Positions 1 through 16,744 are shown, counted from the first letter of the stretch. The stretch: 64,000 bases of DNA from Thermodesulfobacteriota bacterium (GCA_965249045.1 OZ252213.1:201329-265328), one strand, 5' to 3'. Notes: generated from the letters alone by a model not told the origin. Numbers and translations: made by a program.

Positions 1-1510
1 GCGCGCCAAGGCCGGAATTGATATCAAAGACGCGACCATTCTCGCCAACCCGTACCTTCTCTATGAACTGACACGCCTTACCGTCGACCCCGTCAGTGTC
101 TGGACCGTTGACCGTGGTGTCTTTCCGGATGAGGTCGTCCGAGAGAAGCACCCTCTTCCAGAACCGTCGGCTTTGGATGCCGGAACGGATGCCCGCAGGA
201 TTCGTGCGTTTACGGTCAAGGTTCTTGAAGATGAGGCCGCCGCAGGCAATACTCTCCTTCCTCAGGATCAGGTGGTCCTCGGCGTCCGAGCACTCACTCT
301 CCAGCCGCCTTGCAATGTGGATGCTGACCTGATGAATGTCGCTAAGGATGATTTTGGGAATGCTGTCGGCGAACTCTCCATGGCCAACCACGCTCCAGCC
401 CTCCAGCTGGGCAGGCTGACGGAGATGGGAAAGACTATCCGCACGGCGGTAGAAAAGCGCGGCAAGGGCAAACGCCTCACCGTCACGGCCGATTGGCGAG
501 AGATGCTTGACAAACATCTCTCTACCCAGTCGACCGGAAAACCCGATGAACTGGAAGAAAATGCCCGAAAGGAAAAGACAGAGGCACTTACCGAACTCGC
601 AGAGGCGCGACTCTCCGTCCTAATCGGTCCGGCCGGTACTGGCAAGACTACCTTGCTCTCGGTCCTCTGTTCTCACCCGGAAGTCGAAGCGGGTGGAATC
701 CTGCTGCTCGCACCCACCGGAAAAGCCAGAGTGCGCATGGAGCAGTTCACTAAGGGCCTCAATCTCAGGGGCTACACCATCGCCCAGTTTCTAAGCCAGC
801 GACACCGCTATGATAACGCTACCGGCCGCTATCACCTTTCGGACAAACCAACCGAAGCTGGTGCGCGTACGGTTATCATTGACGAGGCTTCAATGCTGAC
901 CGAAGAAATGCTCGCGGCGCTGATCCAAGCGCTCAAGGGCGTGCACAGGCTCGTTCTCATCGGCGACCCACGCCAGCTCCCGCCGATCGGCGCCGGCCGC
1001 CCGTTTGTTGACATCGTTAAACACCTCGCGCCGGAAGGCGTCACCGAGAAATTCCCGCGCGTCGGTCCCGGTTACGCCGAATTGACCATCCGCCGGCGAC
1101 AAAGAAGCGAAGAGCGCGAAGACCTTCAGTTCGCCGAGTGGTTCAGCGGCTCACCAATCGCAGCAGGTGAGGATGACGTTTTTGACAAGGTAGTAGGTAC
1201 CGGCAAAAGCCCTCATATCAGTTTCGTTCAGTGGGAGACCGCCGACGATATGCGCTTGCACCTCATTGACATACTGGTAAGCGAACTGAAACTCCCCGAC
1301 GGTACGTCGGCTCTTAAAGGAGTTGACGACATCGCCGGCTTCGATTCTACGCTCGGAGGCAAGGATTGGAACGGCATGCGCTTCTTTAATCCCCGCAAAG
1401 GCGAAAATGCCGGTGCAGCGGAGATGTCCGAGGGCTGGCAGATACTTTCGCCGGTACGGTCGGCAGCCCTCGGCGTGCCCGATTTGAACCGCTTCATTCA
1501 CCCTAATTCT
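1..1510 (+). pseudogene. RecD-like SF1 helicase, N-terminal part (AAA_30 domain); ORF open to window start; gene interrupted by an IS insertion
   Basis: Walker A LIGPAGTGKTTLLS and Walker B/motif II VIIDEASML. LVLIGDPRQLPPIGAG is the RecD/Dda-type motif III. There is no stop in frame back to position 2. The TAG stop at 1511 is supplied by the IS end. Confidence 0.75.
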
Positions 1511-1539
1511 TAGGATAGTTGTCGCATTTTTTGAATTTT

Positions 1540-1573
1540 CAAGTTTCCAGAAATTTAAATTTCTGGAAACTTG
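1540..1573. promoter_or_regulatory. 34-bp perfect palindrome CAAGTTTCCAGAAATTTAAATTTCTGGAAACTTG upstream of IS orfA
   Basis: Read directly from the sequence. It lies between the left IR and the orfA SD (caggagga). It is a likely transposase/regulator binding site or translation-control hairpin. Confidence 0.5.
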
Positions 1574-1592
1574 AAACAGGAGGACAACTAAA

Positions 1593-2090
1593 ATGAAAAA
1601 GTACAGTTATGAGTTCAAGACCCAGGCCGTTGAGAAAGCTTTGAACCGAGGTGAAGCGCCGCTGCGTTCCGTGGCTCTGCATCTCGGCGTAGATCATTCT
1701 ACTCTGCGAAGGTGGATATCTCAGTTTGAGAATCAATCTTGTCAGGAGCAGATCATGAGCAAAGAAAAAACACCCCAGTCATGGACCCCGGAGCAGAAAC
1801 TGGAGATCGTTATCGCGTGTGAATCCATGGACGAGGGACGGATAAGCGCCCATTGCAGAGAACATGGCGTCTACCCCCATCATGTGAAGCAGTGGAAGAG
1901 GGAGATCCTGAAATTAATGTCGACCTCGCCAGGAACCGCGAATCCTGCTCAGCTAAAGCAGCTCAGAGAGGAGAACAAATCCCTCAGGAAGGAGCTGGGC
2001 AGAAAGGAAAAAGCTCTGGCCGAAACTGCGGCGCTTCTCGTTCTTAAAAAAAAAGCCGGGCAGATATGGGGAACAAGCGAGGACGACTGA
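1593..2090 (+). CDS. IS3-family transposase OrfA (HTH)
   Basis: MKKYSYEFKTQAVE...LGVDHSTLRRWISQF HTH, followed by a leucine-zipper-like C-terminus, which is the typical IS3 OrfA layout. Confidence 0.8.
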   Translation: MKKYSYEFKTQAVEKALNRGEAPLRSVALHLGVDHSTLRRWISQFENQSCQEQIMSKEKTPQSWTPEQKLEIVIACESMDEGRISAHCREHGVYPHHVKQWKREILKLMSTSPGTANPAQLKQLREENKSLRKELGRKEKALAETAALLVLKKKAGQIWGTSEDD

Positions 2091-3124
2091 CCGTGTGTGA
2101 TGAACGTGAACAGATAATCGCTTCGGTAAAAGAAGCTGTCGGTTCGGGAGCCCGTCTGGGCGCCGCGTGCGAAATTGTGGGGATAAACGCAAGGACTTAC
2201 CTGCGATGGAGCAAGCCGGACAATACTCATGACGGGCGTACAGATGCCCGTCATGAACCTCCGAACAAGCTTGGGGAAGAGGAGAGAGAAAAGATCGTAG
2301 AGGTCGTCAACAGCCCGCAGTACGCGGACATGCCTCCCTCGAAGATAGTGCCTCTGCTGGCCGATTCCGGCCAGTACCTGGCCAGTGAGTCCACGTTTTA
2401 CAAAGTGCTGAGGGAGAAGGGACAATTATCCCATCGCCACAAGTCAAAACCCAGTACAGGAGGCAAACCCCGCGGTCTGTGCGCCACCGCTCCCAACCGT
2501 GTCTACAGTTGGGACATAACTTATCTGCCGACTTGCGTTGGGGGCATGTTCTTTTACCTGTACATGGTGATGGACATATACAGCAGGAAGATCGTAGGCT
2601 GGCAGGTGCACAAGCGGGAATCAAGCGAGCTTGCGGCCGATCTGATGACCGATATCTGTTTGAGAGAAGGCGTGGAGCGCGGGGAGGTCACTCTGCACTC
2701 CGACAACGGCGGGGCCATGAAAGGGGCCACGCTGCTTGTGACCTTACAGAAGCTCGGAGTGGTTCGGTCTGCGAGCCGTCCGGGGGTGAGCAGCGACAAC
2801 GCGTATTCGGAATCATTGTTTCGGACTTTGAAATACGTGCCGTATTACCCACAGCGGCCCTTTGAGGATATCGTGGAGGCTCGCCGGTGGGTGGAGGGGT
2901 TTGTCGGCTGGTACAACGAGGCTCATCTGCACAGCGGGATCAAGTTCGTAACCCCTTCGCAGCGTCATGAGGGTCTGGACAAGGAGATATTGTCCAGACG
3001 GGACGAGGTGTACAAGGAGGCGAAGAGGAAGAACCCGATTCGCTGGTCTCGGCAGACGCGAAACTGGTCACAGGTAAAGGAGGTATGGCTTAACCCTGAT
3101 CAGAGAAAGGACAAAGCTGCTTGA
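2066..3124 (+). CDS. IS3-family transposase OrfB (DDE/rve integrase core), expressed by -1 frameshift from OrfA
   Basis: DDE motifs WDITYLP, MDIYSRKIVGW, HSDNGG and YNEAHLHSGIKFVTP. It is in the -1 frame relative to orfA and overlaps the A-run. Confidence 0.8.
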   Translation: MGNKRGRLTVCDEREQIIASVKEAVGSGARLGAACEIVGINARTYLRWSKPDNTHDGRTDARHEPPNKLGEEEREKIVEVVNSPQYADMPPSKIVPLLADSGQYLASESTFYKVLREKGQLSHRHKSKPSTGGKPRGLCATAPNRVYSWDITYLPTCVGGMFFYLYMVMDIYSRKIVGWQVHKRESSELAADLMTDICLREGVERGEVTLHSDNGGAMKGATLLVTLQKLGVVRSASRPGVSSDNAYSESLFRTLKYVPYYPQRPFEDIVEARRWVEGFVGWYNEAHLHSGIKFVTPSQRHEGLDKEILSRRDEVYKEAKRKNPIRWSRQTRNWSQVKEVWLNPDQRKDKAA

Positions 3125-3212
3125 TGAATGACTATGATTATGAGATTGGAGAGAACTTCAGAGGAGGTGCAAACCAGGGCGCGTCATGTTATAATTTGCG
3201 ACAACTATCCTA

Positions 3213-4220
3213 AAAAACACCGTTCACAAGCAGTTCCGCCAAGCGATGATCGACGCCTCACGCAAGGAGGGGTGGCGGCGCAAGCATCCTAAACCCATGG
3301 GGTCCGAGGAGATCGTCTACGGCGACAAGGTCATTAATCTTGTCAACACTGACCCTAAGCTTTCACGAAACAAGCATCGCAAGGTTTACCCGGAGAAGGA
3401 TTCCGCCTATATCGCCAACGGTGAGATCGGTATGGTTGTCGGTTTCTTCAGAAAGAAAGGAGCTCCGGACCTGCGCTGGAAACTTGAGGTCGAGTTTTCT
3501 TCGCAACCCGGCTTCAAGTATGACTTCACCAGTCGCGATTTTGGGGAAGAAGGAAATCCTGTCCTTGAACTTGCCTATGCGCTAACTGTGCACAAATCCC
3601 AAGGCAGCGAGTTCGGCACGGTCATCCTCGTGCTGCCGAACCCGTGCCGCCTGCTCTCGCGCGAACTGCTCTATACTGCTCTCACGCGCCAAAAGGATCG
3701 CATCATCATTCTGCACCAAGGACTGCGCACCGAGTTGCGCAAGTATTCCTCGGACGACCGCTCCGAAACTGCACGGCGCCTGACCAATCTCTTTGTCGCG
3801 CCGTCACCTGTCGAGATCAATGGCCTCTTTTTCGAGAGCTACCTGATCCACCGCACCTCGCGCGGCGAAATGGTACGCTCAAAGTCTGAAGTCATCATCG
3901 CGGACCATCTTGCCAACAATGGCATCGAGTACGGCTACGAGCAGCCGCTCACTATCAAGGGCACCACAAAGTACCCCGACTTCACTATTGAGGACATGGA
4001 AGCGGGGTTAACGTTCTACTGGGAGCACTGCGGGATGCTGCATGTGCAAAGCTACCGTAGCCGATGGGAAGAGAAACTCCAATGGTATAGAACCCACGGC
4101 ATTTTACCGCAGGAAGATGGAGGCGGCGAGAACGGCATATTGATCGTTACGCGCGACGAGGCAAATGGAAGCATAGATTCCTCCAAAATCACCGCGCTCA
4201 TCACAGACTTGTTAACTTGA
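3213..4220 (+). pseudogene. RecD-like helicase C-terminal part (UvrD_C_2-type motif TVHKSQGSE) fused to a C-terminal PD-(D/E)xK/Vsr-like nuclease-like module
   Basis: LAYALTVHKSQGSEFGTVILVLP is helicase motif V/VI. The C-terminus carries YPDFTIED...FYWEHCGM. The frame is continuous with the N-terminal fragment once the IS is removed. Confidence 0.7.
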
Positions 4221-4226
4221 TGTTCT

Positions 4227-5210
4227 CTATGCTTTCTTTTTGTGCTTGAATGGACCATCCCCTATTACAGCCCCGATGCGTTCTTCAAGCTTTTCCCGCA
4301 GTTCCTCTGGATTTTTCCAAACAATATGGTTGTATTGACGCGTGTCAAAATGAATCCTCTTCAATGCATTTTTACGGCATGTGAATATCACCGGGATATT
4401 GAGCCCATGCGCAAAACCCGCTTCATAATAAACCCCACCTCGAGCTCCTCTCCTTCCATGTGTGAAGTCCGCCACAATAAAACGGGAGCGACGGATTTCA
4501 GCTATGATCTTGTCGTCTATTTTGTCCACATGCTCTTCTTTATCAATTCGCATCGGTGTGTATCCGGTGTTCTCAATCGCAGGCTTGATCCCGTCTTCCC
4601 AGACAGGGACCATCGAGTCATCAAACCACATAGCCACAAAAGCCTGTGACGAATCAATAATAGTCTGTTCAAGTTCAGCCAAGTGGACGTAACCACCTAC
4701 AGTTAAGCGATATGTTGGGGGTGATCCTCGGTTTGTTCTTTCAATCCAGCCTTGGTCACAAAGATAATCCACAAAAAAATCTGTTTCTTCTCCTTGAATA
4801 GATTCTGACCATGCCATAATCTGCGACAAGTACTCAGAATTTTCTTCCATATGCACACTGTATTCGAAAAGCTTTCCAGGGTATCGGGTTCTTCTCTGAA
4901 AATATCTAAGAAGTCTGTCTGCCCGCTCAAATACAGATAAAGGTTGCCGTTCTGAAGCTTCTTTAATTTTGATCCCTGTCATCTTCGGACATTCTACGCC
5001 CAGCAACTTCTGTTCAATAAGCCACGAGGTAAGGCGAGCTTTAACTCGATCGTCATAGCGCCCTAATCTAATATCCGTTGCAATCTCTTGGCGAATAAAA
5101 TATTCGCCACCGGCACGTGGCGAATTCACCCAAAGCATCCATTCACTAGAATATTCACAAGTAGCCGGCGTCTTCCAGATAGGACACTTTTCTGTATGAT
5201 TTGAGTTCAT
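4227..5210 (-). CDS. Two-domain protein: N-terminal region with a winged-helix-like segment plus C-terminal nucleoside 2-deoxyribosyltransferase-like / SLOG (TIR-like) domain
   Basis: C-terminus: FVAMWFDDS...FIVADFT...GGVYYEAGFAHGLNIPVIF. This matches the NDT-like pattern with the conserved Glu in a G-x-x-x-E-x-G-x-A context. It is AT-rich and co-directional with herA and sir2. Confidence 0.5.
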   Translation of the reverse strand: MNSNHTEKCPIWKTPATCEYSSEWMLWVNSPRAGGEYFIRQEIATDIRLGRYDDRVKARLTSWLIEQKLLGVECPKMTGIKIKEASERQPLSVFERADRLLRYFQRRTRYPGKLFEYSVHMEENSEYLSQIMAWSESIQGEETDFFVDYLCDQGWIERTNRGSPPTYRLTVGGYVHLAELEQTIIDSSQAFVAMWFDDSMVPVWEDGIKPAIENTGYTPMRIDKEEHVDKIDDKIIAEIRRSRFIVADFTHGRRGARGGVYYEAGFAHGLNIPVIFTCRKNALKRIHFDTRQYNHIVWKNPEELREKLEERIGAVIGDGPFKHKKKA

Positions 5211-5252
5211 AATATTCCCAGCCTCCCAAGCTTATCAAAGTAGTTTAAGGGT

Positions 5253-5338
5253 TTTTCGCAAATTGGATTTTGGCAATCATTCTCAATACTATAATGTGGC
5301 ATTTCTTCCTGAATTTGCGAAAGATTTAAGACATTATC
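5253..5338. promoter_or_regulatory. Putative promoter/operator region: 11-bp inverted repeat TTTCGCAAATT/AATTTGCGAAA (5253-5263 / 5311-5321) plus a 28-bp motif repeated at 14194
   Basis: Read directly from the sequence. It lies 100-130 bp upstream of the 4227-5210 gene start on the minus strand. Confidence 0.35.
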
Positions 5339-5479
5339 GGACTTCCCTCTGATCTAGGACAACTGGCGAAAAAACTGCGCATTCAACATCGAATCGTTTC
5401 ACTGACGTAAAGACGGTTTGATATTAAGTCTCTATACCGGTCCACTTCTGAATTCTGTTTAATCTCCTGGTGAAGCGTT

Positions 5480-7519
5480 TTAAATAGTACTCGTGGAAGG
5501 TTGCTGCCAATCTTTAGCAATCATATCCCAGTCTATTGATCTATCTCGCTCTCGTGACCAAACATCCCAGAAGTCAGGATCATCCGAATGAGGACGCTGG
5601 TGGTCTTCTAGGTCATTCATTCTGATCATAATTGGCAATTCTGAAGCCCACCCAAGCAATATTGCCTGTTGCGTAGGTAAAGAAGGAAGTTCACGGAGCA
5701 ATCCATGCAAGTTGTCTGGAACAAGTCTGTGTATCAACTCCTGATCTCTATCATTACTCACTCTATGCAGCAGAAAACTATTACATTGAGATAGTACTGT
5801 TGGAGAAAGCTCAGAAGGCCGTTGGGACGACAGGACCAAGCCTAACCCGAACTTGCGCCCTTCACGTGAGATTCTTTCAAACATCTGGCAACAGACTGAG
5901 GCAGCACTTGGGTTTTCCAAGTCTTCTTTGTATCGCCTAACAAATATATGCGCTTCCTCCATAACTAAAACGGTTGGTAGCGACTTTTCGTTTAATTTTC
6001 TGTAACGTTGCAACGCTTCAAAGACCATGCGTGCTATAACGGCGGTAACCAAATGAATTATCTCAGTTGGAACCAAAGAGAGGTTTATAACGGTAACACA
6101 ACCATTCTCTGCGTCGTTCTTTCCTATATACTTCTCAAGCCAAGAGTCCAAGGAAGAATTCTCATAATCGCCTATTATGTTCTTCATATTAGTATCCGCT
6201 AACATAGTTCGGATTCGCTCCAAGAGAAACTCGATATATTGTTCATTTCCTGTTTCCTGACCCAAAACTTCAAGGTAATTAACGAAAACCTCTCCTTCAA
6301 ACTCAGTTGGAACATCCTCGCTTTTCGGTAACAATTCTTGCTCTGCCCCACCAAAGGAATTGAAAGCCTCTGTTATTTTGTCAATCATAGCCGTGATCTC
6401 GCCTATATTAGAGGTATAATCAGGGTGCGGTCTCTCGCGGTTAGATTTGTAAATATGCAAGCATGATTCCAGACTATCAAGCCTCCGGTCTTCCGATTCT
6501 AAGCGTGATTTTAAGTCCTCAACACTACTCAACCAGTTGCAGATTTTTTCGTAGAAACCTTTTGGCTTTGGAAAAGACCCCCAAGGAGAGCCGCTGTTTC
6601 TGTCGTGTTTCGCACTGAGCAGGATAGTCTTTAGAAATCTTTTTATCTCAATATCTGTTACCTCCGTTAATTCAAATTTTTCATTGCGCATTGCACGAAG
6701 TGCTTTCCTCAAGAGAGGTGCTTGTGCTCTTGAGCTGGCTTGCGCAAAGGAACGCCACTCAGCACTATTCCAAAACCAAAGCGGAACCTTCAGCGGATTG
6801 TTATTATTCCCCACTTCAAAAACTCTTCCTTTTTCTCCAAATACTTTTGCATGTTCGCCATTTGGGTCGAGAATAATGAATCTTGCATTTGGTTCTTTCT
6901 GTTGATCTTCCATATTTTCCCTGACGGAATTTAACGACCATTGAATCAGCCCCGCTACAGAACATGATTTACCACTTCCCGTATTTCCAAGCACGGCAAG
7001 ATGACGCCCAAACAGGCGATCGGGATCAACACATACATCAGCGTTAGCTGCCATAGGGCTTGTACCGATCTTGACTCTTCTCTTCTCGCCGGATTCAACA
7101 ATTGCTCGAAGTTGATCATCCGTTGGAATCAGTACGGATTCTCCAGCACTAGGAAATGTGTGAACACCGCGCTTAAATGAGAATTCGTCGCCGTTCTTGG
7201 TCAGAATTCCCAAAGGATTCACGCGCATTTTCCTCAAAGGAAATGGCAAGTCTACAAGCCCGTAATCATGAAAACCTTTACGTTTTGGAAACGGGGACCG
7301 CTCAATAGCTATCCATTCTACTTGCGCAACTATGTATCCAGACTCGGTAGCGACTAGAACATAGCTGTTGATGCGAGGGAACGCCCTTGGGATACCGGCA
7401 TTAGCCGCTAGGCCGTCGGGTGCTTCCAAATCAAGACTAACTTTAATCTCATTGGGTGCTACAAATTCAACTGTCCCAATACGAAGGGAGGCGGAATATT
7501 CAACAGGAGATATGCTCAT
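5480..7519 (-). CDS. herA: HerA-like FtsK/HerA-family ATPase (DUF87), partner of SIR2 in the SIR2-HerA antiphage system
   Basis: Walker A AVLGNTGSGKS and Walker B TVLVMEEAH, with an N-terminal HerA barrel-like region. It overlaps sir2 by 4 bp. Confidence 0.8.
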   Translation of the reverse strand: MSISPVEYSASLRIGTVEFVAPNEIKVSLDLEAPDGLAANAGIPRAFPRINSYVLVATESGYIVAQVEWIAIERSPFPKRKGFHDYGLVDLPFPLRKMRVNPLGILTKNGDEFSFKRGVHTFPSAGESVLIPTDDQLRAIVESGEKRRVKIGTSPMAANADVCVDPDRLFGRHLAVLGNTGSGKSCSVAGLIQWSLNSVRENMEDQQKEPNARFIILDPNGEHAKVFGEKGRVFEVGNNNNPLKVPLWFWNSAEWRSFAQASSRAQAPLLRKALRAMRNEKFELTEVTDIEIKRFLKTILLSAKHDRNSGSPWGSFPKPKGFYEKICNWLSSVEDLKSRLESEDRRLDSLESCLHIYKSNRERPHPDYTSNIGEITAMIDKITEAFNSFGGAEQELLPKSEDVPTEFEGEVFVNYLEVLGQETGNEQYIEFLLERIRTMLADTNMKNIIGDYENSSLDSWLEKYIGKNDAENGCVTVINLSLVPTEIIHLVTAVIARMVFEALQRYRKLNEKSLPTVLVMEEAHIFVRRYKEDLENPSAASVCCQMFERISREGRKFGLGLVLSSQRPSELSPTVLSQCNSFLLHRVSNDRDQELIHRLVPDNLHGLLRELPSLPTQQAILLGWASELPIMIRMNDLEDHQRPHSDDPDFWDVWSRERDRSIDWDMIAKDWQQPSTSTI

Positions 7520-8832
7520 GTTTCTTCGTCTTCATTATCTTTTTCATCTTTATCGCTATGTGGAGCAGCGAGGCCGCGAGCTTTGAGCAAGTCGACCATT
7601 TTAATAGTAGTTCTGTCAATGGCAGGTTTTGGTAAGTAGTTGTCTATTAGAGTTTTTAGGTCACCAAAATGATTGCCAATTAATAGCGATATTTGGGCAG
7701 ATCTTTTTACTTTCTCATAAAACCGCTTAATTCGACCACCCCTATCATTAAAGCTAATGATTACTAAATGAGTTGAAGGAATAGTAAGCATATCTGCGAT
7801 GACCCGATTGATATGCTCATCACCAAAACCGTAACCGTAAACAACAACTGTCGAATTTGCGCGGCAAACTGAAGCCGCAAAATCCCTGAAAAGTTCGACA
7901 TACGGGTACTCCGTTGTTTCCCTGTCTTTTGCAGCATTAGGATAAATTAGAAGTCTTGCACACTCATCCATGTAATCGCCGATATTTTCAGCGCCGTATG
8001 GAAGTGCTACCCTGCGAACCACTCCGTCTTGGAACGTCCAATCTAATGAACCATGAAGCTTGGAAAAATGCACTACTCCTTCCAGATATCTAGGTTCGCC
8101 TCGAATTCCCGGGGGATTGTAATGCATGTCCACCTGAACCCTTGAGGATCGGAATACAGGGTTTACGATTCCAACAAATCTATCAATCAAACGAATACCT
8201 GCCAATTCCGACCCATATTCAATAATGCGGTCGTAGTTTGTTGTATAGATATTGAGACGTTCTCTCGTAGCCGAGCGACTAGCGAGGCTAATTAAAAAAC
8301 TCATTAGATATTCCGCTGCTTCTTCCGATTTTGGGGACTTGACTATATTTCTTTCGCATTCAAGAACCGCATTAGCGAATTTCTCCAAGCCATTATCCAG
8401 TTCTTCTTGCAGTTTCTTAAGATCCTTTTGGATTTCTTCGTTTCTGGAACTCTCACCAGAAGTATATATTTCCATCCCTCTTATCAACTCATTGCAGACT
8501 CGAATTTGATCTTCAATGTTCGGTTCACCCCGGCCTGAGTTTTCCGCGCTGCTCCTTGCTGCTTGGCTGATTTGATTTTGAAATACTGAAAACGGTATTT
8601 CATCCATATACTCTGCAGATTCTTCTCGCGCTAATTGGTGCGTCGCGGATGAGATGCCAGCCCCCAAGACTAGAGACAGGTGTTCACTCTGGAAAAGTGC
8701 GGTTAGCCATGGTTCTATTTCTACACGGAGTTTTTTGTTCTCTGGTTCATCAATCACTAATGGATGACGTTGGTCTCGAACTTTGTATAAATTACATTCT
8801 ACCCAGTTGTCAATGTTGCTATCCTTACTCAT
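7516..8832 (-). CDS. SIR2-family (SIR2_2/DSR-like) NADase-type protein of the SIR2-HerA defense system
   Basis: Motifs LVLGAGISSATH, YTTNYDRIIE, KLHGSLDW and GYGFGDEH, typical of the defense-associated SIR2_2 family. It is in an operon with herA. Confidence 0.8.
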   Translation of the reverse strand: MSKDSNIDNWVECNLYKVRDQRHPLVIDEPENKKLRVEIEPWLTALFQSEHLSLVLGAGISSATHQLAREESAEYMDEIPFSVFQNQISQAARSSAENSGRGEPNIEDQIRVCNELIRGMEIYTSGESSRNEEIQKDLKKLQEELDNGLEKFANAVLECERNIVKSPKSEEAAEYLMSFLISLASRSATRERLNIYTTNYDRIIEYGSELAGIRLIDRFVGIVNPVFRSSRVQVDMHYNPPGIRGEPRYLEGVVHFSKLHGSLDWTFQDGVVRRVALPYGAENIGDYMDECARLLIYPNAAKDRETTEYPYVELFRDFAASVCRANSTVVVYGYGFGDEHINRVIADMLTIPSTHLVIISFNDRGGRIKRFYEKVKRSAQISLLIGNHFGDLKTLIDNYLPKPAIDRTTIKMVDLLKARGLAAPHSDKDEKDNEDEET

Positions 8833-8862
8833 TGCTAAGTTCTTATACGCTACTTATCTATT

Positions 8863-9948
8863 ATTCGTGGTTTCAAGTACCAAATGCAACTTTTGAGATA
8901 GATTAAAAGGGTAAGTTGCGATAATCTTCACAACCCTCTTTTAACGACCAGATCAAAAGGAGCATTTGAATGAGAAGACCAAAGCAACTTACCCTGGTAC
9001 AAAGATACCAGATTGCCATTTTGCTGAAAGCAGGCCACAACCAGACCCAGACGGCAAAGCAGCTTGGCGTGCACAAGTCCACCATCAGCAGGGAACTGCG
9101 TCGCAATCGCGGCAAGCGGGGGTACCGTCCCAAGCAGGCCCAGAGATTTGCCGACGCGCGGCGTTTCTGTGTCCAAAGCCGCATCTCACAGCAAACCTGG
9201 CTTCGGGTGGAACAGTTGCTAAGAGAAGACTGGAGCCCTCAACAGATAAGTCACTGGCTTGGGGATAACGAGGGATTGGAGGTAAGCCACGAGAGTATCT
9301 ACCGATATGTAAAAGACGACAAGATGAGTGGAGGAGATCTCTACACGCATCTTCGCTGCCGCAGAAAGCGCAGGAAACGCTACGGGACCCCCTGGCTCAG
9401 GGGACATATCAAAAACCGCGTCCGCATTGATCAGCGTCCCGACGTGGTAGATAAACGCTTACGCATAGGAGACTGGGAAGCTGATACCCTTGTTGGTACA
9501 AGGAACAGAAGCAAGGTGCTTGCAACCCTTGCCGAACGCAAGTCTCGCTATTGCATGATAGTGGTCTGCGAGGACAGAAAGGCCAACTCCATCTCCCGGG
9601 CTATACTTTCAGGGGCAGAACCGATGCGTGAGAGCTTTATGACGGTGACGTGCGATAACGGCAAGGAGTTTGCGTCGCATGAAGAGCTCTCCAGCAAGCT
9701 TGGTGCTGACTGGTACTTTGCCCATCCTTACCACTCGTGGGAGCGGGGTCTTTGTGAGAACACAAACGGACTTATACGCCAGTACTTCCCAAAGGGAATG
9801 GACTTTGCGGCGCTGACGCAGGAAGATGCCAACAGAGTTATGGATAAATTGAACAACAGACCGAGGGAGTGTCTTGGATTCAAAACACCGAATCAGGTAT
9901 TCTTCGGAACCGACCCACCTGTTGCGTTTGGTACTTGAAACCACGAAT
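8863..9948 (+). mobile_element. IS30-family insertion sequence (1086 bp) with 19-bp terminal inverted repeats ATTCGTGGTTTCAAGTACC
   Basis: Inverted repeats at 8863-8881 and 9930-9948. It carries a single transposase ORF. It is inserted 30 bp upstream of the sir2 start codon. Confidence 0.8.
8970..9938 (+). CDS. IS30-family transposase (N-terminal HTH, C-terminal DDE)
   Basis: LTLVQRYQIAILLKAGHNQTQTAKQLGVHKSTISRELRRN HTH. DDE core with DWEADT and CDNGKEF. Confidence 0.8.
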   Translation: MRRPKQLTLVQRYQIAILLKAGHNQTQTAKQLGVHKSTISRELRRNRGKRGYRPKQAQRFADARRFCVQSRISQQTWLRVEQLLREDWSPQQISHWLGDNEGLEVSHESIYRYVKDDKMSGGDLYTHLRCRRKRRKRYGTPWLRGHIKNRVRIDQRPDVVDKRLRIGDWEADTLVGTRNRSKVLATLAERKSRYCMIVVCEDRKANSISRAILSGAEPMRESFMTVTCDNGKEFASHEELSSKLGADWYFAHPYHSWERGLCENTNGLIRQYFPKGMDFAALTQEDANRVMDKLNNRPRECLGFKTPNQVFFGTDPPVAFGT

Positions 9949-10255
9949 CCTTATAATTTTTTTTGGTTACCTTCTAGGAAGATGACTAAGAACTACGATT
10001 ATGAAATTTACGCACTTCTGTGGATCAGTCGCCGAAGTACAAACATTATTAAGAGATCTACTGTCTTGCGAATGCAAAATTCCTGTAAAAGCAATTGAGC
10101 GGAAGCTCCATTTAACTGTCTATCATGGAAGGAGGAGACTTTCTGGCCTTACTTCTTATAAGGGTTTTTTTATGGGAAAAACAACCGCGCATGCTGCAAC
10201 AGGGAAAAACAAGAAAATTCTGGGGAACCATTAACAAAGAGGTCGGCAGGGTCTG

Positions 10256-11398
10256 ATGAAAACAAAGATAATACACACGTCTGACTGGCAGATCGGAAAG
10301 GTTTTCCGGTTTGTAGATAACCAGACGATGGGGCTCCTTCAGGAGGCGCGCCTCGGAGCGATTACCCGCCTGGGGGAGTTCGCCGAACAAAACGACGTCC
10401 ACCATATCCTGGTCGCCGGAGACGTATACGACATGGAGGCGCTCTCGACCCGCTCTCTTAACCAGCCGATTGAGCGCATGAGGAATTTCCCCGGGGTAAA
10501 ATGGCACCTGCTGCCGGGAAACCACGACCCCCATCGTCCAAACGGGCTCTGGGATCAACTCACTCGCAGAGGCATTCCAGACAACATTCATATCCATACC
10601 ATGCCCGAGCCCGCAATCTTTGAGGATGAATCTTTGGTTCTGCTGCCCGCTCCGCTTCTCCATCGAAAGACTCTTGAAGATCCGACCGCGTACATGGACA
10701 ACATCTCTCTTCCCGAAGGATTTGCGCGCATTGGAATCGCCCACGGCACCGTGGTCGGCTTCGGCTCGGACGATGAGAACATCCCGAATCACATAGCCCC
10801 TGACCGCCCCGCCCGCGCCGGGCTCTCTTATCTGGCCCTTGGCGACTGGCACGGACAGAGGAAGATAAACGACCACTGCTGGTACAGCGGCACACCGGAA
10901 ACAGACGCGTTTGACGTTGCGGACGGCGGACAAGCGCTGCTAGTGGAAATTTATGACACCGGAGCCGCTCCAAAGGTAACGCCCTTTGACACGGGACAGT
11001 ACAGATGGATCAGTCTTTCAGAACGGATAAACAACCGCGAGGACATTGATTTTCTTTCGGAAAAGCTCAGAAACGTAGACGAAAACCTGAACCGGGTGCT
11101 GCTGCACCTGAAGGCGGAAGGAGCCCTGTCGCTCGGCGACCGTGAATATTTCCAGCAGCAGATCACAGACGGCGTCTCGGCCGCACTCTGCTTCCTTCGC
11201 GTCGACGACAGCCGGCTTTTCCCCAGTCCCACGGAGGAAGACCTTGACCGGATTGACAGGCGGGGTTTCGTGCGTGCGGCCGCGGAAACCCTGAAGCGCA
11301 TGGCAAGCGAAGGAAACGATTCGGAACGGGAACTTGCAGCCGAGGCCCTCCAGCGACTCTACCTTGAGCATATGAAATCGGAGGCGGAGCGGCGATGA
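10256..11398 (+). CDS. sbcD: SbcD/Mre11-like metallophosphoesterase nuclease subunit
   Basis: Calcineurin-like motifs IIHTSDWQIGK, VAGDVYD and GNHDP. It is translationally coupled to the downstream ATPase by a 4-bp overlap. Confidence 0.7.
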   Translation: MKTKIIHTSDWQIGKVFRFVDNQTMGLLQEARLGAITRLGEFAEQNDVHHILVAGDVYDMEALSTRSLNQPIERMRNFPGVKWHLLPGNHDPHRPNGLWDQLTRRGIPDNIHIHTMPEPAIFEDESLVLLPAPLLHRKTLEDPTAYMDNISLPEGFARIGIAHGTVVGFGSDDENIPNHIAPDRPARAGLSYLALGDWHGQRKINDHCWYSGTPETDAFDVADGGQALLVEIYDTGAAPKVTPFDTGQYRWISLSERINNREDIDFLSEKLRNVDENLNRVLLHLKAEGALSLGDREYFQQQITDGVSAALCFLRVDDSRLFPSPTEEDLDRIDRRGFVRAAAETLKRMASEGNDSERELAAEALQRLYLEHMKSEAERR

Positions 11399-14106
11399 AA
11401 CTGCGATCCCTTGCGGTAAACCAGTTCAAAAAATTCACAAGCCCGATGCGTCTCGGCGAGATCAATGACGGGTTAAACGTCGTCGTCGGCCCGAACGAAA
11501 TGGGCAAGTCAACCCTGCTCGACGCGCTTCGCGCAGTGCTGTTTGAAAAACACGACTCAAGGGCAAGACCCGTAAAAGATCTGCAAAACGACCGGAACAA
11601 TGCAGGGCCGGTCATAGAGCTTGCCTTTGAACTTAATGAGGGTAATTACCGGATCAGAAAACGGTTCATAAAGAAGCCCTACGCGCGTCTTGACTGTCCC
11701 GACGGGCGAACACTTGAAGGAGACGCCGCTGAGGAGGAACTTCGCGAACTTCTGAGCCTGGGTAAACCCGCGAGAAGCGGAGCGCAGCCGGAAACCCTGG
11801 GAATGTGGAACGTGCTCTGGGTAAAGCAGGGCAGGTCTTTCGGAGCACCCGATCTTCCGGAAAGCGCGCGTGGGAATCTCCACGGCGCCCTTGAATCTGA
11901 GGTCGGCACGGTACTCGGGGGAAGACGAGGACGGGCACTGCCGCAGGTAATAGAAAAACAGCTCGGCGAACTGGTCACCTCCAGCACCAACAAGCCCAGA
12001 GGACAATACAGGGATATTCTCGAGCGGGAGACCTCACTTAACGGAGAAATCGAGAGTCTCGAGGAGCGCCGCGCGGAACTCTCTGACACCCTCGCCCGCC
12101 TTGAAGAAGCCCAAGAGACACTGAAGCGCTTGTCATCGGAGAATCGTGACGAAACCGACGGGGAAGAGATTAAAAGAGCGAGGCAACGGCACGGTGAACT
12201 GGCGGAGCTTGAAACCCGGAGAGAAGCCGCAGGGACCGAACTTGAACTCAGGAAGCTCAACCTGGAAAAGGCCGAAGGAGAAGAAAAACAGCGTAGCAAA
12301 CTGAAAGACGATATCAAAGCCGAAGAGGTGTCCTTGGATGCAGCCGGGAAACGGCGGGGAGAGGTGCGGAAAAAGGAAAGGGAATCCCGGGAAAAAATTG
12401 AAAAGCTACGCGAGGCGGTGCGCGAGGCCGAGGCAGGCCTCGGGGCGGCTGAAGATACCGTCCTGCGGGAAAGCCGCATTTTGGAAGCCGTGCGCCTGAA
12501 AAACCGGATCGGGGAGCTTGAGAGGCGTTTTGAAAAAGCTAGGGAAGCGGAAACACGCAGGCGGGAAGCCCAACGGGGAGCCGTAACCATTACGATCACC
12601 GAGGAACTGATCGAACGAATACGCGCGGCGGAGAAAGAACTTGAAAAAGCCACCGACCGCCTAAGCGCCGTCGCGACCACCATAACCCTTGATATGGAAC
12701 CGAACCGCCCCGTCGGTATTGAGATTAACGGTGAACCGTTTACAGACGACCGCTCTTCCATCTGGGCCGTTTCACCGGTAACAATAGCAATTCCCGAATG
12801 CGGACGAATCACGGTTGAACCAGCCGTAAAAAACCGGGATAAACTTCTTGGCCAGCAAAACAATGCCGAAGCCGAACTTAAAAACGCATTGAGGGAGGCT
12901 GGCGCCGAAAGCCCAAGTGAAGCCGAAAACCGTTACGGCGAGAGAGAGAAACTGCTACGGGACGCTGAGCTTGCCCGCCAAGAAGCGGAACTTCACTCTC
13001 CCGCAACCGAAGAGTACGAAGCTGGCGCGCTGGCGCTTGGCGACCACATTAAAAGTCTTTCTCTGGTACTCAAGCGGGAAACCGATGAACTCGCTTTAAG
13101 TGAACTACCCGCACTCAAAGAATCCGAGACGGCTCTTGAGGACGCTAGGGGGCGGGCTGCCGACGCGCGCCACGCTCTTGAGAAAGTACGCGCCGAACTC
13201 AGCGGACCGGACAAGGCGCTCGGCGATCTCCAGACCGAACTCACTACCGCCGACGTGCGTTACGAAGGTGCGGAAGAACATCTCGCCCGTCTTCGCAGTC
13301 AGCTTGAAGATGCGGAAAAGCAGTGCCCAAGCGATGAGCTTCTGAAAAATATCGATACGGCCCAAAAAAGGCTTTCGGAGCAGGAAGAGGTCATAGCTAA
13401 ACTGAGCGGCGGACGCGAGGATGAGACGCTTGAGCAGCTCCAGGCCCGTATGGACCGTCTTGAAAAGGCCATTGAGGAGAGACGTGAGAAACGCGGGAAT
13501 CTCGATGTGGAAATAAGCGGGCTCAGATCGCGCGTGGAGGCTTCCGAGGGCGGCGGGATTGACGAGGTGATTCAGCAGAAAAACCGCGAGCTTGAACTTT
13601 GCCAAGAAGAGATCAGACGCTCCAAGCGCGAGGTGGATGTTCTTACCCTGCTGCTTTCAACGTTACGCGGTGCCGAACGGGAAGCCAAGGAACTCTACAT
13701 GTCACCCGTGGTAAATCGACTCAGGCCCTATCTGCAACTCCTGTTCCCCGGTGCAAACATTGCTATAGATGAAAACCTCAAGATCACAGGCGTGGTACGG
13801 GAGGGCGGGTACGAAGAACCCTTCCATCACCTGAGCATGGGAACTCAGGAGCAGATCGCCGTTCTGGTCCGCCTGGCATTTGCGGAGATGCTCGTTGAGC
13901 AAGGGCAGCCAGCAACGGTAGTGCTTGATGACGCTCTTGTGTTTTCCGACGACCACAGGATGGACCGCATGTTCGACATTCTCAACATATCGGCCAAAAG
14001 CATCCAGGTCCTGATTTTTACCTGCCGAGAACAGCTTTTTGAAGGAATTGGCGGCTGTCACCTGTCATTGGAGACCGGGGACGCAGAGGAACTCATGTCG
14101 GCGTGA
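11395..14106 (+). CDS. sbcC: SbcC/Rad50/YhaN-like AAA_23 ATPase with long coiled coil; no CxxC zinc hook recognisable
   Basis: N-terminal Walker A VVGPNEMGKSTLLDA. Roughly 600 aa of E/R/K/L-rich coiled coil. C-terminal signature LSMGTQEQ and Walker B VVLDDALVFSDD. Confidence 0.65.
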   Translation: MKLRSLAVNQFKKFTSPMRLGEINDGLNVVVGPNEMGKSTLLDALRAVLFEKHDSRARPVKDLQNDRNNAGPVIELAFELNEGNYRIRKRFIKKPYARLDCPDGRTLEGDAAEEELRELLSLGKPARSGAQPETLGMWNVLWVKQGRSFGAPDLPESARGNLHGALESEVGTVLGGRRGRALPQVIEKQLGELVTSSTNKPRGQYRDILERETSLNGEIESLEERRAELSDTLARLEEAQETLKRLSSENRDETDGEEIKRARQRHGELAELETRREAAGTELELRKLNLEKAEGEEKQRSKLKDDIKAEEVSLDAAGKRRGEVRKKERESREKIEKLREAVREAEAGLGAAEDTVLRESRILEAVRLKNRIGELERRFEKAREAETRRREAQRGAVTITITEELIERIRAAEKELEKATDRLSAVATTITLDMEPNRPVGIEINGEPFTDDRSSIWAVSPVTIAIPECGRITVEPAVKNRDKLLGQQNNAEAELKNALREAGAESPSEAENRYGEREKLLRDAELARQEAELHSPATEEYEAGALALGDHIKSLSLVLKRETDELALSELPALKESETALEDARGRAADARHALEKVRAELSGPDKALGDLQTELTTADVRYEGAEEHLARLRSQLEDAEKQCPSDELLKNIDTAQKRLSEQEEVIAKLSGGREDETLEQLQARMDRLEKAIEERREKRGNLDVEISGLRSRVEASEGGGIDEVIQQKNRELELCQEEIRRSKREVDVLTLLLSTLRGAEREAKELYMSPVVNRLRPYLQLLFPGANIAIDENLKITGVVREGGYEEPFHHLSMGTQEQIAVLVRLAFAEMLVEQGQPATVVLDDALVFSDDHRMDRMFDILNISAKSIQVLIFTCREQLFEGIGGCHLSLETGDAEELMSA

Positions 14107-14248: not shown

Positions 14249-16744
14249 TTATATATTTTCTCCGGTTTTCGTCCTAAATGAAGCATAGTCCTTGCGGTAA
14301 TCGCAACCGGCGCAAAACACCTCGTATTCTTTAGGGCTTTCTTTAGGACGCACGCCTAACCAGGCACTTTCGCCTCTCGTTAAACATGCCGGACAAGGAA
14401 CTTCATTGCTGGTATAGTTGCAAAGCCCTTTCCCGAAGTTCGTACATCCCAGAAATATGGAATACGGAGGAGGATTGCTCCTTACCCTCCTTACGAGAGC
14501 CCCTCTCCACCTTCCTTCGACCAGTCCCTTGCTGAGACATTCCGGACATGGCTTTACAACATCTCCTCTCAAAACAACATCGTTGAATTTAATACCCAAG
14601 CGCGCGCATATTTCTTTTACTTCTCTGGTAAAGGATGACGGCTGAATGGACTGATTGACGAGAAATATCTTCTCCCTAGCTCGAGTCATGGCTACATACA
14701 TCACGCGTCTATCTTCCGAATTTAAATAACTGTCGCTCGGAGGAAGAAAAACGGAGACCAGGGGATCCTCCCCTCCGTGGTTCGGAAAGCCCATCATGCC
14801 TGAATCCATCCCCAGTATAATGACAATATCCTCTTCAAGTCCTTTTGATTTGTGGATTGTTCCCTTGGATATCCTCAGGTCGTCTCTGTAGGACATCAGG
14901 TCTTTGGAATTAACGGCCTCAATTTCCCTGTTTTTTCGCCCCAGTATAAAAACCCCTTTGCTTTTATCCGATCTGGGAATCAGATCCAAAACCTTTTTTA
15001 AATTCTCGTTGTCGTAATAATCAACAGAACATATATTGACAGCAGGGGTGCTGTCATCCGCCGGTCGGGAACGAACGGATTTTCTGATCTGAACGGGGTT
15101 TTTCTGAATAAATTCAGAAGCGAGATCTGAAATTGGCTTGCAGGTTCGAAACGTCTCCTGAATCTTATACCCCCGAGGCTTAAATGAAGAGACCGACCGC
15201 TCCGGCATCTTTTTTTCTGGAGCAAGCGGTTTATCTGAATCAAGAAACTCTTTCATAACCATGCTGTTTGAACCGGTGAATCCATAGATCGACTGCCAGT
15301 CGTCTCCCACTGCGAAAAGACGAGAATCCGGGGCAAGTATCTGGGCAAGGAAATTCTTTCTGGATTCAGATACGTCCTGAAATTCATCCACCAGAGCATA
15401 TTTATACCGCCCCGGCCAGAACCTCTCTCTTTCGGTGCCGCTTAGATGGCGGGTCGGCCTTAAGATCATGTCTTCAAAATCTATGGTGCCGTTTTCGCTC
15501 AAGATCTTCTGGTAACTCTCAAAGATCGGAAGAAAGAACCTTTTAAACAGCCTGCTCCTGAATTTGTCGTGAAGAGAATCAAGGCGCATTGACAACCCTC
15601 CCGGGGAAAGATCGTTCGCCTTGGCCAGTTTTACGCATCTTGCGATCAGGTTGTACGTATCGTCTGTATAAAGTTTTTCAAGCCGTTTATTGATATATTC
15701 TTTAGAGGGAGGGTCATAAGAGATGCCTTTTTCGTCAAGCTTTTTTAAAATTTTCTCAAGCACGGTGCCTTCGTAATACTCATAGCTGTAAGTAAAAAGA
15801 AAGTCCTTGCCTTGTTTTTCGTAGAACTTATTTTTCTGCCGAAACGTTTCAACGTAGCCCTTAAAGGGCGAGCTGCCGTCTCTTCCGATCGCAAAGTGCT
15901 CGTGCCAAATATCTATTTCCGGGTAATAAAAATCCGGGGTTACCTGCCCGTCAGGATAGGGTCTTTCATACTCTACATTCACTCCCTTGATTATCAGACT
16001 GTTTATGATTGCAAGCTCCTGCTGAGATCTCACCCAGTATTTCTCATCTAAGCTTGGAATGCGCTTCGGTTCAAAGTCTCTGCCTGATCTGAATGACTCC
16101 CTTTTGTAGGGGTAGCTCACGACAGCCTCGTTGTATTCCTCCTCATTCCGGGCGAATTCCTCTATCTGATGGTATGGACTCTCGGCCCTGAACTCAGAAA
16201 TCCAGTTCTCAATCTTCGGGTATCTGCCCTTCGCCTTATCGATTATCTTTAGCACGTTGGCCGTGTCTAAAAGACCGTCAGAAGAGGATTCCGAAAGAAT
16301 ATCCACTCTTTTTCTTCCTTCCACCTTGTTCAGTAATTCAAGACCAAACCCGTGAAAGGTGTAAACTTCGGGATTGATGCCATCTGAGACAAGCTTTTTT
16401 ATCTTTTCCTTAAGCTCCTGCTCTATGGCTTTGTTAAAAGCAAGAACCAGAATTTCTTTTGGGCTTGCAAGCCCTTCTTTTAGTAAAAAAACGTATTTTC
16501 CTATAAGCGTCGTAGTTTTCCCCGAACCTGCCGAGGCTATAACCAGCGTTCGATAGGAATCATCAACTATGCAGAGTCTCTGCTCTTGAGTAAGGGGGTT
16601 AGGAAAAAGATGGTCAAAAAGATCTTTGTGTTTTGACAGCAAAGATTTCGTTTTTGCCGCGTCCGGTTCCGAGGTGGATTTTTTCCGAAACCATACAATT
16701 AATATAAGTACAACTATTAGAAACAGTAAAAGGAAAAGTTCCAT
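14249..16744 (-). CDS. UvrD/PcrA-family SF1 helicase with N-terminal transmembrane helix, PD-(D/E)xK (Vsr/NERD-like) module inserted between motifs Ia and II, and C-terminal tandem C4 zinc ribbons
   Basis: N-terminal MELFLLLFLIVVLILIVWF. Helicase motifs ASAGSGKTTTL (motif I), DEFQD (II), VGDDWQSIYGF and YVAMTRAREK. Inserted EYERPYPDGQVTPDFYYPEIDIWHEHF. C-terminal CPEC...C, CPAC, CAGC. AT-rich relative to its neighbours. Confidence 0.7.
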   Translation of the reverse strand: MELFLLLFLIVVLILIVWFRKKSTSEPDAAKTKSLLSKHKDLFDHLFPNPLTQEQRLCIVDDSYRTLVIASAGSGKTTTLIGKYVFLLKEGLASPKEILVLAFNKAIEQELKEKIKKLVSDGINPEVYTFHGFGLELLNKVEGRKRVDILSESSSDGLLDTANVLKIIDKAKGRYPKIENWISEFRAESPYHQIEEFARNEEEYNEAVVSYPYKRESFRSGRDFEPKRIPSLDEKYWVRSQQELAIINSLIIKGVNVEYERPYPDGQVTPDFYYPEIDIWHEHFAIGRDGSSPFKGYVETFRQKNKFYEKQGKDFLFTYSYEYYEGTVLEKILKKLDEKGISYDPPSKEYINKRLEKLYTDDTYNLIARCVKLAKANDLSPGGLSMRLDSLHDKFRSRLFKRFFLPIFESYQKILSENGTIDFEDMILRPTRHLSGTERERFWPGRYKYALVDEFQDVSESRKNFLAQILAPDSRLFAVGDDWQSIYGFTGSNSMVMKEFLDSDKPLAPEKKMPERSVSSFKPRGYKIQETFRTCKPISDLASEFIQKNPVQIRKSVRSRPADDSTPAVNICSVDYYDNENLKKVLDLIPRSDKSKGVFILGRKNREIEAVNSKDLMSYRDDLRISKGTIHKSKGLEEDIVIILGMDSGMMGFPNHGGEDPLVSVFLPPSDSYLNSEDRRVMYVAMTRAREKIFLVNQSIQPSSFTREVKEICARLGIKFNDVVLRGDVVKPCPECLSKGLVEGRWRGALVRRVRSNPPPYSIFLGCTNFGKGLCNYTSNEVPCPACLTRGESAWLGVRPKESPKEYEVFCAGCDYRKDYASFRTKTGENI

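Follow-up and report, generated by a model that had tools for sequence, protein, structure and literature searches.

A gene beside a SIR2-HerA antiphage pair as a candidate single-protein defence system with interchangeable effector domains

Does a gene that lies directly downstream of a SIR2-HerA antiphage pair belong to that system, or do two independent defence modules stand side by side? The question is raised by a 64,000-nt stretch of DNA from a Thermodesulfobacteriota bacterium (GCA_965249045.1 OZ252213.1:201329-265328; the whole stretch is hereafter called the window), in which sir2, herA and a third gene, here named geneC, follow one another on the minus strand. An earlier reading made from the DNA alone (the sequence-only reading) had proposed a three-gene SIR2-HerA variant and had named an independent single-gene module stacked in the island as the alternative. 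In our view it is probable that two defence modules, each independent of the other, adjoin one another here in an island rich in mobile elements, with geneC as a single-protein system that consists of a sensor and a nucleoside 2-deoxyribosyltransferase (NDT)/TIR-like effector.

Layout of the locus and relationship of geneC to SIR2-HerA

Open reading frames (ORFs) were read on the minus strand unless stated otherwise, and the question turns on the following features:

4227-5210, minus strand: geneC, ORF call of 327 aa
4227-4655, minus strand: C-terminal NDT/TIR-like domain of geneC (aa 186-327), with the invariant Glu263 in GGVYYEAGFA
4656-5210, minus strand: N-terminal module of geneC (aa 1-185), a small beta head (CPIW...SPRAGG) and a helical/MarR-like winged helix
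5211-5326, minus strand: upstream region of geneC, with a GGGAGG resembling a ribosome-binding site and promoter-like hexamers, kept in the relative L124, which is without SIR2-HerA
5327-5449, no strand: junction between the modules, without homology to geneC-bearing relatives or to other SIR2-HerA cassettes
5450-8857, minus strand: two-gene SIR2-HerA cassette, 88% nt identity to L085 over exactly this interval (blastn)
5480-7519, minus strand: herA, 679 aa (PADLOC HerA PDLC04098, E=4e-252, full-length coverage; Pfam DUF87, E=6e-24)
7516-8832, minus strand: sir2 (SIR2_2), 438 aa (PADLOC SIR2 PDLC04079, E=3e-162; Pfam SIR2_2, E=3e-8)

These calls reproduce exactly the coordinates that the sequence-only reading had assigned to the three genes, including the 4-bp overlap of sir2 and herA (7516-7519). 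GeneC does lie downstream of herA in the same direction, as had been said, with a measured gap of 269 bp (5211-5479) in place of 270. The description of the block as AT-richer than its surroundings was also correct, with a GC content of 0.42-0.46 over ~4000-9000 and 0.52-0.59 in the flanks. Because each has thousands of homologues, geneC, herA and sir2 are real genes rather than chance ORFs.

Judged by sequence, the sir2-herA pair is a canonical two-gene SIR2-HerA system, and nothing sets it apart from the known kind. A SIR2_2 protein is encoded beside a HerA (DUF87) ATPase in a co-directional, translationally coupled arrangement, and the sir2 product also matches the NCBIfam model SIR2_antiphage with E=1e-40, under its curated cut-off. 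Every Sir2-HerA type described to date consists of two genes (PMC13434337, PMC11472057). The pair moves as a two-gene unit, as can be seen in the three closest cassettes (L085-L087; SIR2 79-88% and HerA 84-91% aa identity), where homology is confined to the cassette and the downstream genes differ: a DNA methyltransferase gene follows in L085, an unknown 301-aa gene in L086, and HipA in L087. Window positions 5505-8833 are 79-80% identical to L086 and L087 at the nucleotide level (blastn), and geneC is absent from all three contigs.

The geneC side of the comparison drew on 80 genome loci, taken from species representatives across many phyla, with up to ±10 kb around each geneC homologue (less on short contigs), and on 99 further loci totalling 0.9 Mb. 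Of the latter, 19 are on viral contigs and 80 on metagenome contigs, which in many cases measure 1-5 kb and offer little flank. Using the SIR2 and HerA of the window as tblastn queries, we found SIR2 near none of the 80 genome homologues, a single weak HerA-like match among them, and neither protein in the 99 viral and metagenome loci. The recurrent co-localisation with SIR2-HerA that the sequence-only reading had put forward as a check was therefore not borne out. The closest homologues of geneC, at 69-78% aa identity (L081/L082 75-78%, L124 77%, L083/L084 69%), tell the same story, as SIR2-HerA was not seen in the available DNA around any of these five; the L083 contig runs out 285 bp upstream of geneC, which puts this side out of view. 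In L081 and L082, geneC is surrounded by an upstream HTH gene and by TIR_2, HicA, HEPN and PIN genes. L083 and L084 (from a Candidatus Dadabacteria metagenome-assembled genome, MAG) and L124 share with the window only a helicase gene of the PDC-S68 type that is convergent with geneC. One metagenome sample is the source of both L085 and L081, in which the cassette and geneC lie on separate contigs.

DNA homology divides the region in the same way. Positions 4217-5217 form a geneC-sized block with 80% nt identity to L081/L082, and 3588-5326 match L124 at 81% (blastn), a stretch that spans the end of the helicase gene, geneC and 116 bp upstream of geneC. Homology then stops at 5326 (L124) and resumes at 5450 (L085), and the 123 bp between them match neither. 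The helicase-geneC stretch is also ~80% identical at the nucleotide level to the Candidatus Dadabacteria MAG. As geneC is low in GC in L083 too (0.41-0.45), beside a helicase gene at 0.52-0.54, the AT-richness that it shares with sir2 and herA is no sign of co-acquisition.

We conclude from these sequence comparisons that geneC is independent of SIR2-HerA and that the region is a juxtaposition of two modules; the homology blocks, the surveyed loci and the differing neighbours all favour the independent, stacked module that had been offered as the alternative. A three-gene variant, in which geneC would act as a sensor, effector or signal processor coupled to the NAD+/ADP-ribose (ADPR) chemistry of SIR2, is very unlikely and is largely refuted by comparative genomics: of 179 other loci, none has SIR2 next to geneC, each module is without the other in its nearest relatives, the two blocks meet at an unrelated 123-bp junction, geneC has its own conserved upstream region and is low in GC even where SIR2-HerA is unseen, and the published Sir2-HerA types have two genes (PMC13434337). 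These points stand against the features that had made a single unit attractive, namely the co-directional position of geneC 269 bp downstream of herA, the similar low GC, the binding of NAD/ADPR-like ligands by NDT/TIR-like folds, and a promoter/terminator scan of the herA-geneC gap that predicted no intrinsic terminator, so that read-through co-transcription from herA into geneC is possible in this genome. The same scan placed a promoter-like site at 5238-5209, with promoter-like counts close to the shuffled expectation. We suggest that a three-gene SIR2-HerA architecture should not enter catalogues of defence systems.

Two side observations concern the closest geneC loci. A small AF_1680/Bac_DnaA_C HTH gene precedes geneC in L081 (9213-10004, overlapping it by 4 bp) and in L082 (9381-9983, 17 bp upstream); it is absent from the window and may be a lineage-specific regulator or partner. 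In L124 (1-2951), geneC appears frameshifted (a 170-aa ORF), and the 1.85 kb upstream contain no ORF longer than 93 aa, so that this locus is either decaying or affected by an assembly error.

The geneC protein and its exchangeable C-terminal domains

The AlphaFold model of geneC, built on 32 homologues (pLDDT 81), consists of a small beta head of four strands (aa 5-40; C9, W12, S30, R32 and G35 are invariant), a helical region with a winged helix at its end (aa ~54-183; this middle domain is MarR-like) and a Rossmann-like domain (aa 189-316). Its fold matches scored as follows:

MilB CMP/hydroxymethyl-CMP hydrolase: 13.2
nucleoside 2-deoxyribosyltransferases: 13.1-12.7
plant TIR domains: about 12
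DNPH1/Rcl: 11
ThsA SLOG: 9.9

The second Foldseek match is a viral 'CMP/hydroxymethyl CMP hydrolase'. GeneC has the NDT/Rcl Rossmann-like fold, in which the helix that follows the central strand bears the catalytic Glu, and Glu263, Asp248, Asp289 and Gln292 are invariant in the 32 homologues. The motif VADFT...GGVYYEAGFAHG with a catalytic-type Glu, which the sequence-only reading had singled out, is indeed present, this Glu being the invariant Glu263, and the motif RFxVADFT...RGGVYYEAGFAHGL is nearly invariant in the family. According to the model, the effector fold lies between NDT and TIR in fold space.

At the level of sequence the picture is weaker. The Pfam family PF05014 gives 22.2 bits with the full protein (E=1.6e-4) and 24.2 bits with the domain alone (E=3.8e-5), which is below threshold, and the PADLOC CBASS 'Effector TIR' model PDLC00733 is matched by 32 of 32 geneC family members (best E=1e-11). 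Of the earlier description, a winged helix joined to an NDT-like domain with a catalytic-type Glu has held up, and the label 'SLOG' has to be dropped; the profile searches that had been proposed as its check gave a sub-threshold PF05014 match and none for PF15891 or SLOG. An NCBIfam scan of geneC gave no meaningful match, and sequence searches of solved structures with geneC and its family profile returned chance matches only (E>0.2). A DNPH1-type site gained no support at the sequence level, as the hhalign alignment of the family profile with human DNPH1, whose sequence had been verified against the PDB, was spurious (24 columns, probability 3%).

A 333-aa relative with the same NDT-like C-terminal domain (44% identity) is encoded at 9458-10459 of the contig L096, and also in L095 and L097-L103 (IMG/VR contigs). 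It carries a CxxC...CxxC zinc-ribbon-like head instead of the CPIW head, and it adjoins a 168-aa ORF, TIR-like by eye, and a 551-aa ORF. The head of this relative suggests that the beta head of geneC is a degenerate zinc ribbon.

To gain a view of the N-terminal module by itself, we searched the first 185 aa of geneC against 1.84 billion cluster representatives, which returned 826 clusters (50% identity) at E<=1e-3. The NDT-like domain is present in 65 of the best 150 of these 826 clusters, many of the rest being fragments, and a distinct set of clusters carries other C-terminal domains at the same position:

TIR_2: P0262, P0317, P0321, P0343 and P0257 (the three tested with PADLOC all match PDC-S66; the ThsB match is strong for P0262 and P0317 and weak for P0257)
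CAP12/Pycsar TIR: P0248 (PF10137, E=3e-39; PADLOC PDC-S35, E=8e-76)
SEFIR: P0333 (PADLOC bSEFIR, E=2e-66)
two transmembrane helices (2TM): P0282 (sequence inspection)
PLD-like: P0281 (PADLOC PDC-S05 match; PLD-like by sequence inspection)

The module itself has no PADLOC model and no significant Pfam match (best E=0.08), and neither it nor the whole of geneC matches the PDC-S35, PDC-S66 or PDC-S05 models. An hhalign comparison of the geneC family with P0248 spans both domains and places GGVYYE263AGF opposite RQNVIFELGYF, so that Glu263 faces the Glu of FELGYF; by this alignment, which is anchored mainly by the shared N-terminal module, geneC has a conserved catalytic Glu at the TIR position. 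By analogy, a constant sensor with a swappable toxic effector is the design of many single-protein abortive-infection systems, and the finding of this design around geneC argues that the NDT-like domain is its effector, functionally equivalent to a TIR NADase or N-glycosidase.

Distribution, genomic neighbourhoods and proposed role of geneC

The family is large and essentially unannotated, and it has the hallmarks of a single-gene defence system. Its homologues in the database exceed 7300, some of them full-length at 50-78% identity, with at least 547 matches in species-representative genomes, and almost all are unnamed or called 'hypothetical protein'. Among the matches listed, a precomputed PF05014 match is found for 3 of 120 homologues. 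A Bradyrhizobium plasmid homologue (43% identical) is a RefSeq 'hypothetical protein', and related Bacillus mycoides plasmid proteins bear the RefSeq name 'nucleoside 2-deoxyribosyltransferase'. The lineages represented in the 80 genome loci include Dadabacteria, Latescibacterota, Binatia, Poribacteria, Dehalococcoidia, Vicinamibacterales and Alphaproteobacteria. MAGs make up almost the entire set, several of them from sponge-named lineages such as Poribacteria and Poriferihabitaceae, and homologues also occur on conjugative/mobilisable plasmids and on IMG/VR contigs.

A conserved partner gene was considered and rejected, as each neighbour family is limited to 10 or fewer of the 80 loci, where the immediate neighbours span 103 Pfam families. 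Among the neighbour domains, UvrD helicase, DNA methylase, HsdS and ResIII are the commonest, and no cyclase or other signal generator is found among the 25 commonest Pfam families. Linkage to the PDC-S68 helicase as a rule was likewise discarded; it is seen only in L083, L084 and L124, in 0 of the 80 genome loci, and as one weak match in the 99 others. GeneC homologues are wedged into operons with gaps of 2-16 bp, and three types of operon recur:

type III Res / unknown / N6_N4 methyltransferase / geneC / UvrD-like helicase: 5 loci
SNF2-NOV_C helicase / DUF1156 methyltransferase / geneC / HEPN-DUF499: 2 loci
NTase-substrate-binding protein / NTase-HsdS / geneC: 4 loci, at least one of which continues with HsdR

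A sensor with interchangeable toxic effectors and a variable, defence-rich neighbourhood, both of which mark single-protein defence genes, are thus found together in this family. Its distribution, as read from sequence, is that of a mobile, self-sufficient defence cassette, not that of a salvage enzyme or a fixed subunit.

In the mechanism that we propose, the N-terminal head and the MarR-like winged helix-turn-helix (wHTH), probably dimeric, would sense a phage nucleic acid or protein cue, and activation would bring the C-terminal domains into an active oligomer. NDTs and TIRs both need composite or oligomeric sites. Glu263 would then cleave the N-glycosidic bond of an abundant nucleotide, most likely NAD+, or else of adenine or other nucleotides; by fold proximity to MilB, DNPH1 and NDT, the alternative substrates would be deoxy- or ribonucleoside mono- or triphosphates ((d)NMP/(d)NTP). 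The outcome would be growth arrest or abortive infection of the infected cell, and geneC would probably be a trigger-activated N-glycosidase on NAD+ or nucleotides. Such chemistry has precedents: retron type II effectors pair a winged helix with an NDT-like domain and work by depleting nucleotides (PMC7736814; bioRxiv 10.1101/2023.08.16.553469). One of them, from Ec86, reportedly depletes adenine derivatives (bioRxiv 10.1101/2023.08.16.553469), and TIR-like NADases such as DUF4062/Swarozyc provide a further precedent (bioRxiv 10.64898/2026.05.01.722283). Because its homologues are so often wedged inside type I and type III restriction-modification (RM) operons and DUF1156/DUF499 operons, geneC may also be a guard or back-up that fires when these are inhibited. 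We tentatively raise the possibility that geneC stands for an uncatalogued, widespread family of single-protein abortive-infection systems in which an undescribed N-terminal sensor drives interchangeable effectors, with the NDT-like version as a retron-independent nucleotide N-glycosidase that may guard RM/DUF1156/DUF499 systems.

Several observations weigh against our interpretation of geneC as a separate defence system with an NDT/TIR-like effector. Among its fold matches, those that score best are hydrolases and transferases of nucleotides rather than NADases. The PF05014 score stays below the gathering score of 28.8 bits, and geneC itself has no match to PF10137 or a TIR family of Pfam. 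Many homologues sit in housekeeping-looking neighbourhoods with ABC transporters and thiamine pyrophosphate (TPP) enzymes. The family is not present as a system in PADLOC v2, and we found no experimental report on it in the literature, including any of phage protection. The lack of a predicted terminator behind herA, and the read-through that it would allow in this genome, belong here as well.

Other functions for geneC have to be weighed against this interpretation. It could be a transcription regulator of neighbouring defence genes, with a wHTH under a non-catalytic, nucleotide-sensing TIR/NDT-like domain, comparable to CapW and BrxR. The MarR-like middle domain, the frequent tight position in RM-type operons and, in the closest homologues, the upstream HTH gene that overlaps geneC by 4 bp (L081) would fit such a role. 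We regard it as unlikely because the catalytic-type Glu263 and the residues around it are invariant and because paralogues with the same N-terminal module carry 2TM or PLD-like domains; these, like the TIR_2 and SEFIR domains fused to it elsewhere, are effectors and not ligand sensors. There is also no single conserved regulated partner, and geneC is usually a middle or last gene of its operon instead of lying upstream of and divergent from its neighbours.

Nucleotide chemistry of another kind is a doubtful possibility: geneC might act on the modified bases of phages, either as a sanitiser of the hydroxymethyl-dCMP/hydroxymethyl-dUMP pool in the manner of MilB/DNPH1, or in wHTH-guided base excision on modified phage DNA, and its activity would then resemble Type IV restriction and not abortive defence by NAD+ depletion. 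The viral hydrolase found by Foldseek, the MilB and DNPH1 fold matches and the embedding of geneC in RM operons speak for it, as does the parallel with some Type IV enzymes, in which winged-helix domains sense DNA modification (PMC11037411). The TIR, SEFIR and 2TM effectors on paralogues with the same sensor are typical of abortive systems, however, and geneC has no sequence-level match to MilB or DNPH1. That geneC is a housekeeping nucleoside-salvage 2-deoxyribosyltransferase, as the sub-threshold PF05014 match and the RefSeq name of the Bacillus mycoides plasmid relatives would have it, is extremely improbable; this reading is refuted by the genomic context that we see at the sequence level, as there is no conserved housekeeping synteny among neighbours from 103 Pfam families, the gene is low in GC, patchy across phyla and found on plasmids and mobile elements, and its extra 185-aa sensor module is common to TIR and 2TM proteins. 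If our preferred interpretation of a sensor-effector defence protein is true, NDT-type effectors would extend beyond retrons, a new sensor module would be common to TIR, SEFIR, 2TM and PLD-like effectors, and possibly a new depleted metabolite would be revealed.

The surrounding island and likeness to known systems

The area around the two modules is a mobile-element-rich defence island with stacked modules, of which the nearest features are:

1502-3222, plus strand: IS3-like element of 1.72 kb that splits the PDC-S68 helicase gene (inverted repeats 1507-1526 and 3197-3216)
3223-4220, plus strand: C-terminal part of the PDC-S68-type RecD-like helicase (PADLOC PDC-S68 PDLC05065, E=7e-139, profile positions 913-1218 of 1221)
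8863-9948, plus strand: IS30-like element (28-nt terminal inverted repeats 8863-8890 and 9921-9948; transposase ORF 8970-9938 with HTH_38 and rve)

The helicase, a PADLOC single-gene defence candidate, occupies 1-1501 and 3223-4220, runs off the left edge of the window and is convergent with geneC across a 6-bp gap. In L083/L084 the orthologue is whole (1253 aa) and likewise faces geneC convergently, as does a fragment in L124, and window positions 1-1501 and 3223-5232 are collinear with L083. The IS3-like element has two transposase ORFs, orfA (1593-2090) and orfB (2066-3124), with an apparent 5-bp duplication, TTCAC. The IS30-like element lies 31 bp upstream of the sir2 start, exactly where the homology of the SIR2-HerA cassette ends, so that its insertion may have moved the sir2 promoter away or substituted for it. 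Another IS30-like copy, at ~39239-40173, seems to be frameshifted.

Farther along, an SbcCD-like pair of host-like GC lies at 10256-14106 on the plus strand (Metallophos, 380 aa, and SMC/AAA, 903 aa). A low-GC (0.43-0.46) UvrD-family helicase gene follows at 14249-16744 on the minus strand; in PADLOC it matches GajB best (E=4.5e-40), though a GajA partner was not identified, and this gene too may have been acquired for defence. Downstream of the island, further mobile/accessory content is indicated by two AAA_14/DUF4143 ATPases that are paralogues, a DUF4172-Fic/DOC protein and a tyrosine recombinase (20193-21440, 25448-26692, 26920-28026 and 30525-31400). Neither the Rfam nor the tRNA scan of the window gave a match.

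Compared with known systems, the sir2-herA cassette has the same SIR2_2 and DUF87 pair, with a 4-bp overlap and full-length PADLOC matches, as the NAD+-depleting SIR2-HerA system (Gao 'Her'/Nezha). The geneC of the window is no part of that system, and the IS30-like element upstream of sir2 may affect expression here. In composition, geneC is like the retron type II effectors of Retron-Eco1/Ec86 and Retron-Sen2 (RcaT), which have the same pair of NDT-like domain and wHTH, a catalytic Glu and a length of ~310-330 aa. The order is reversed, however, as the NDT domain is N-terminal and the wHTH C-terminal in the retron effectors, and geneC has an extra beta head. It also has no detectable sequence match to the solved retron effectors and no reverse transcriptase beside it, its neighbours being HerA and the RecD-like helicase, and since the window contains no Rfam family, there is no msr-msd non-coding RNA either. 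Defence through nucleotide depletion has been reported for the retron effectors and is proposed here for geneC.

The CAP12/Pycsar TIR, PDC-S35/PDC-S66 and bSEFIR domains stand at the effector position of paralogues that share the geneC module. The C-terminal domain of geneC resembles them in its match to the CBASS 'Effector TIR' model PDLC00733 and in the alignment of Glu263 with the FELGYF Glu, and it differs from them in matching none of PDC-S35, PDC-S66 and PF10137 and in a fold closer to NDT/MilB than to canonical TIRs. DNPH1/Rcl, MilB/BcmB and the classical NDTs (Nribosyltransf clan) have no significant sequence similarity to geneC, and they are single-domain metabolic enzymes, whereas geneC carries 185 aa of sensor module and stands in a defence island. 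PrrC- and RloC-type effectors are embedded in type I RM loci and have anticodon nuclease chemistry, in contrast to geneC, which is a predicted N-glycosidase and in the window lies outside an RM operon. GeneC homologues elsewhere are likewise wedged between RM subunits (Mod-geneC-helicase, HsdS-geneC-HsdR), suggesting a back-up or guard role.

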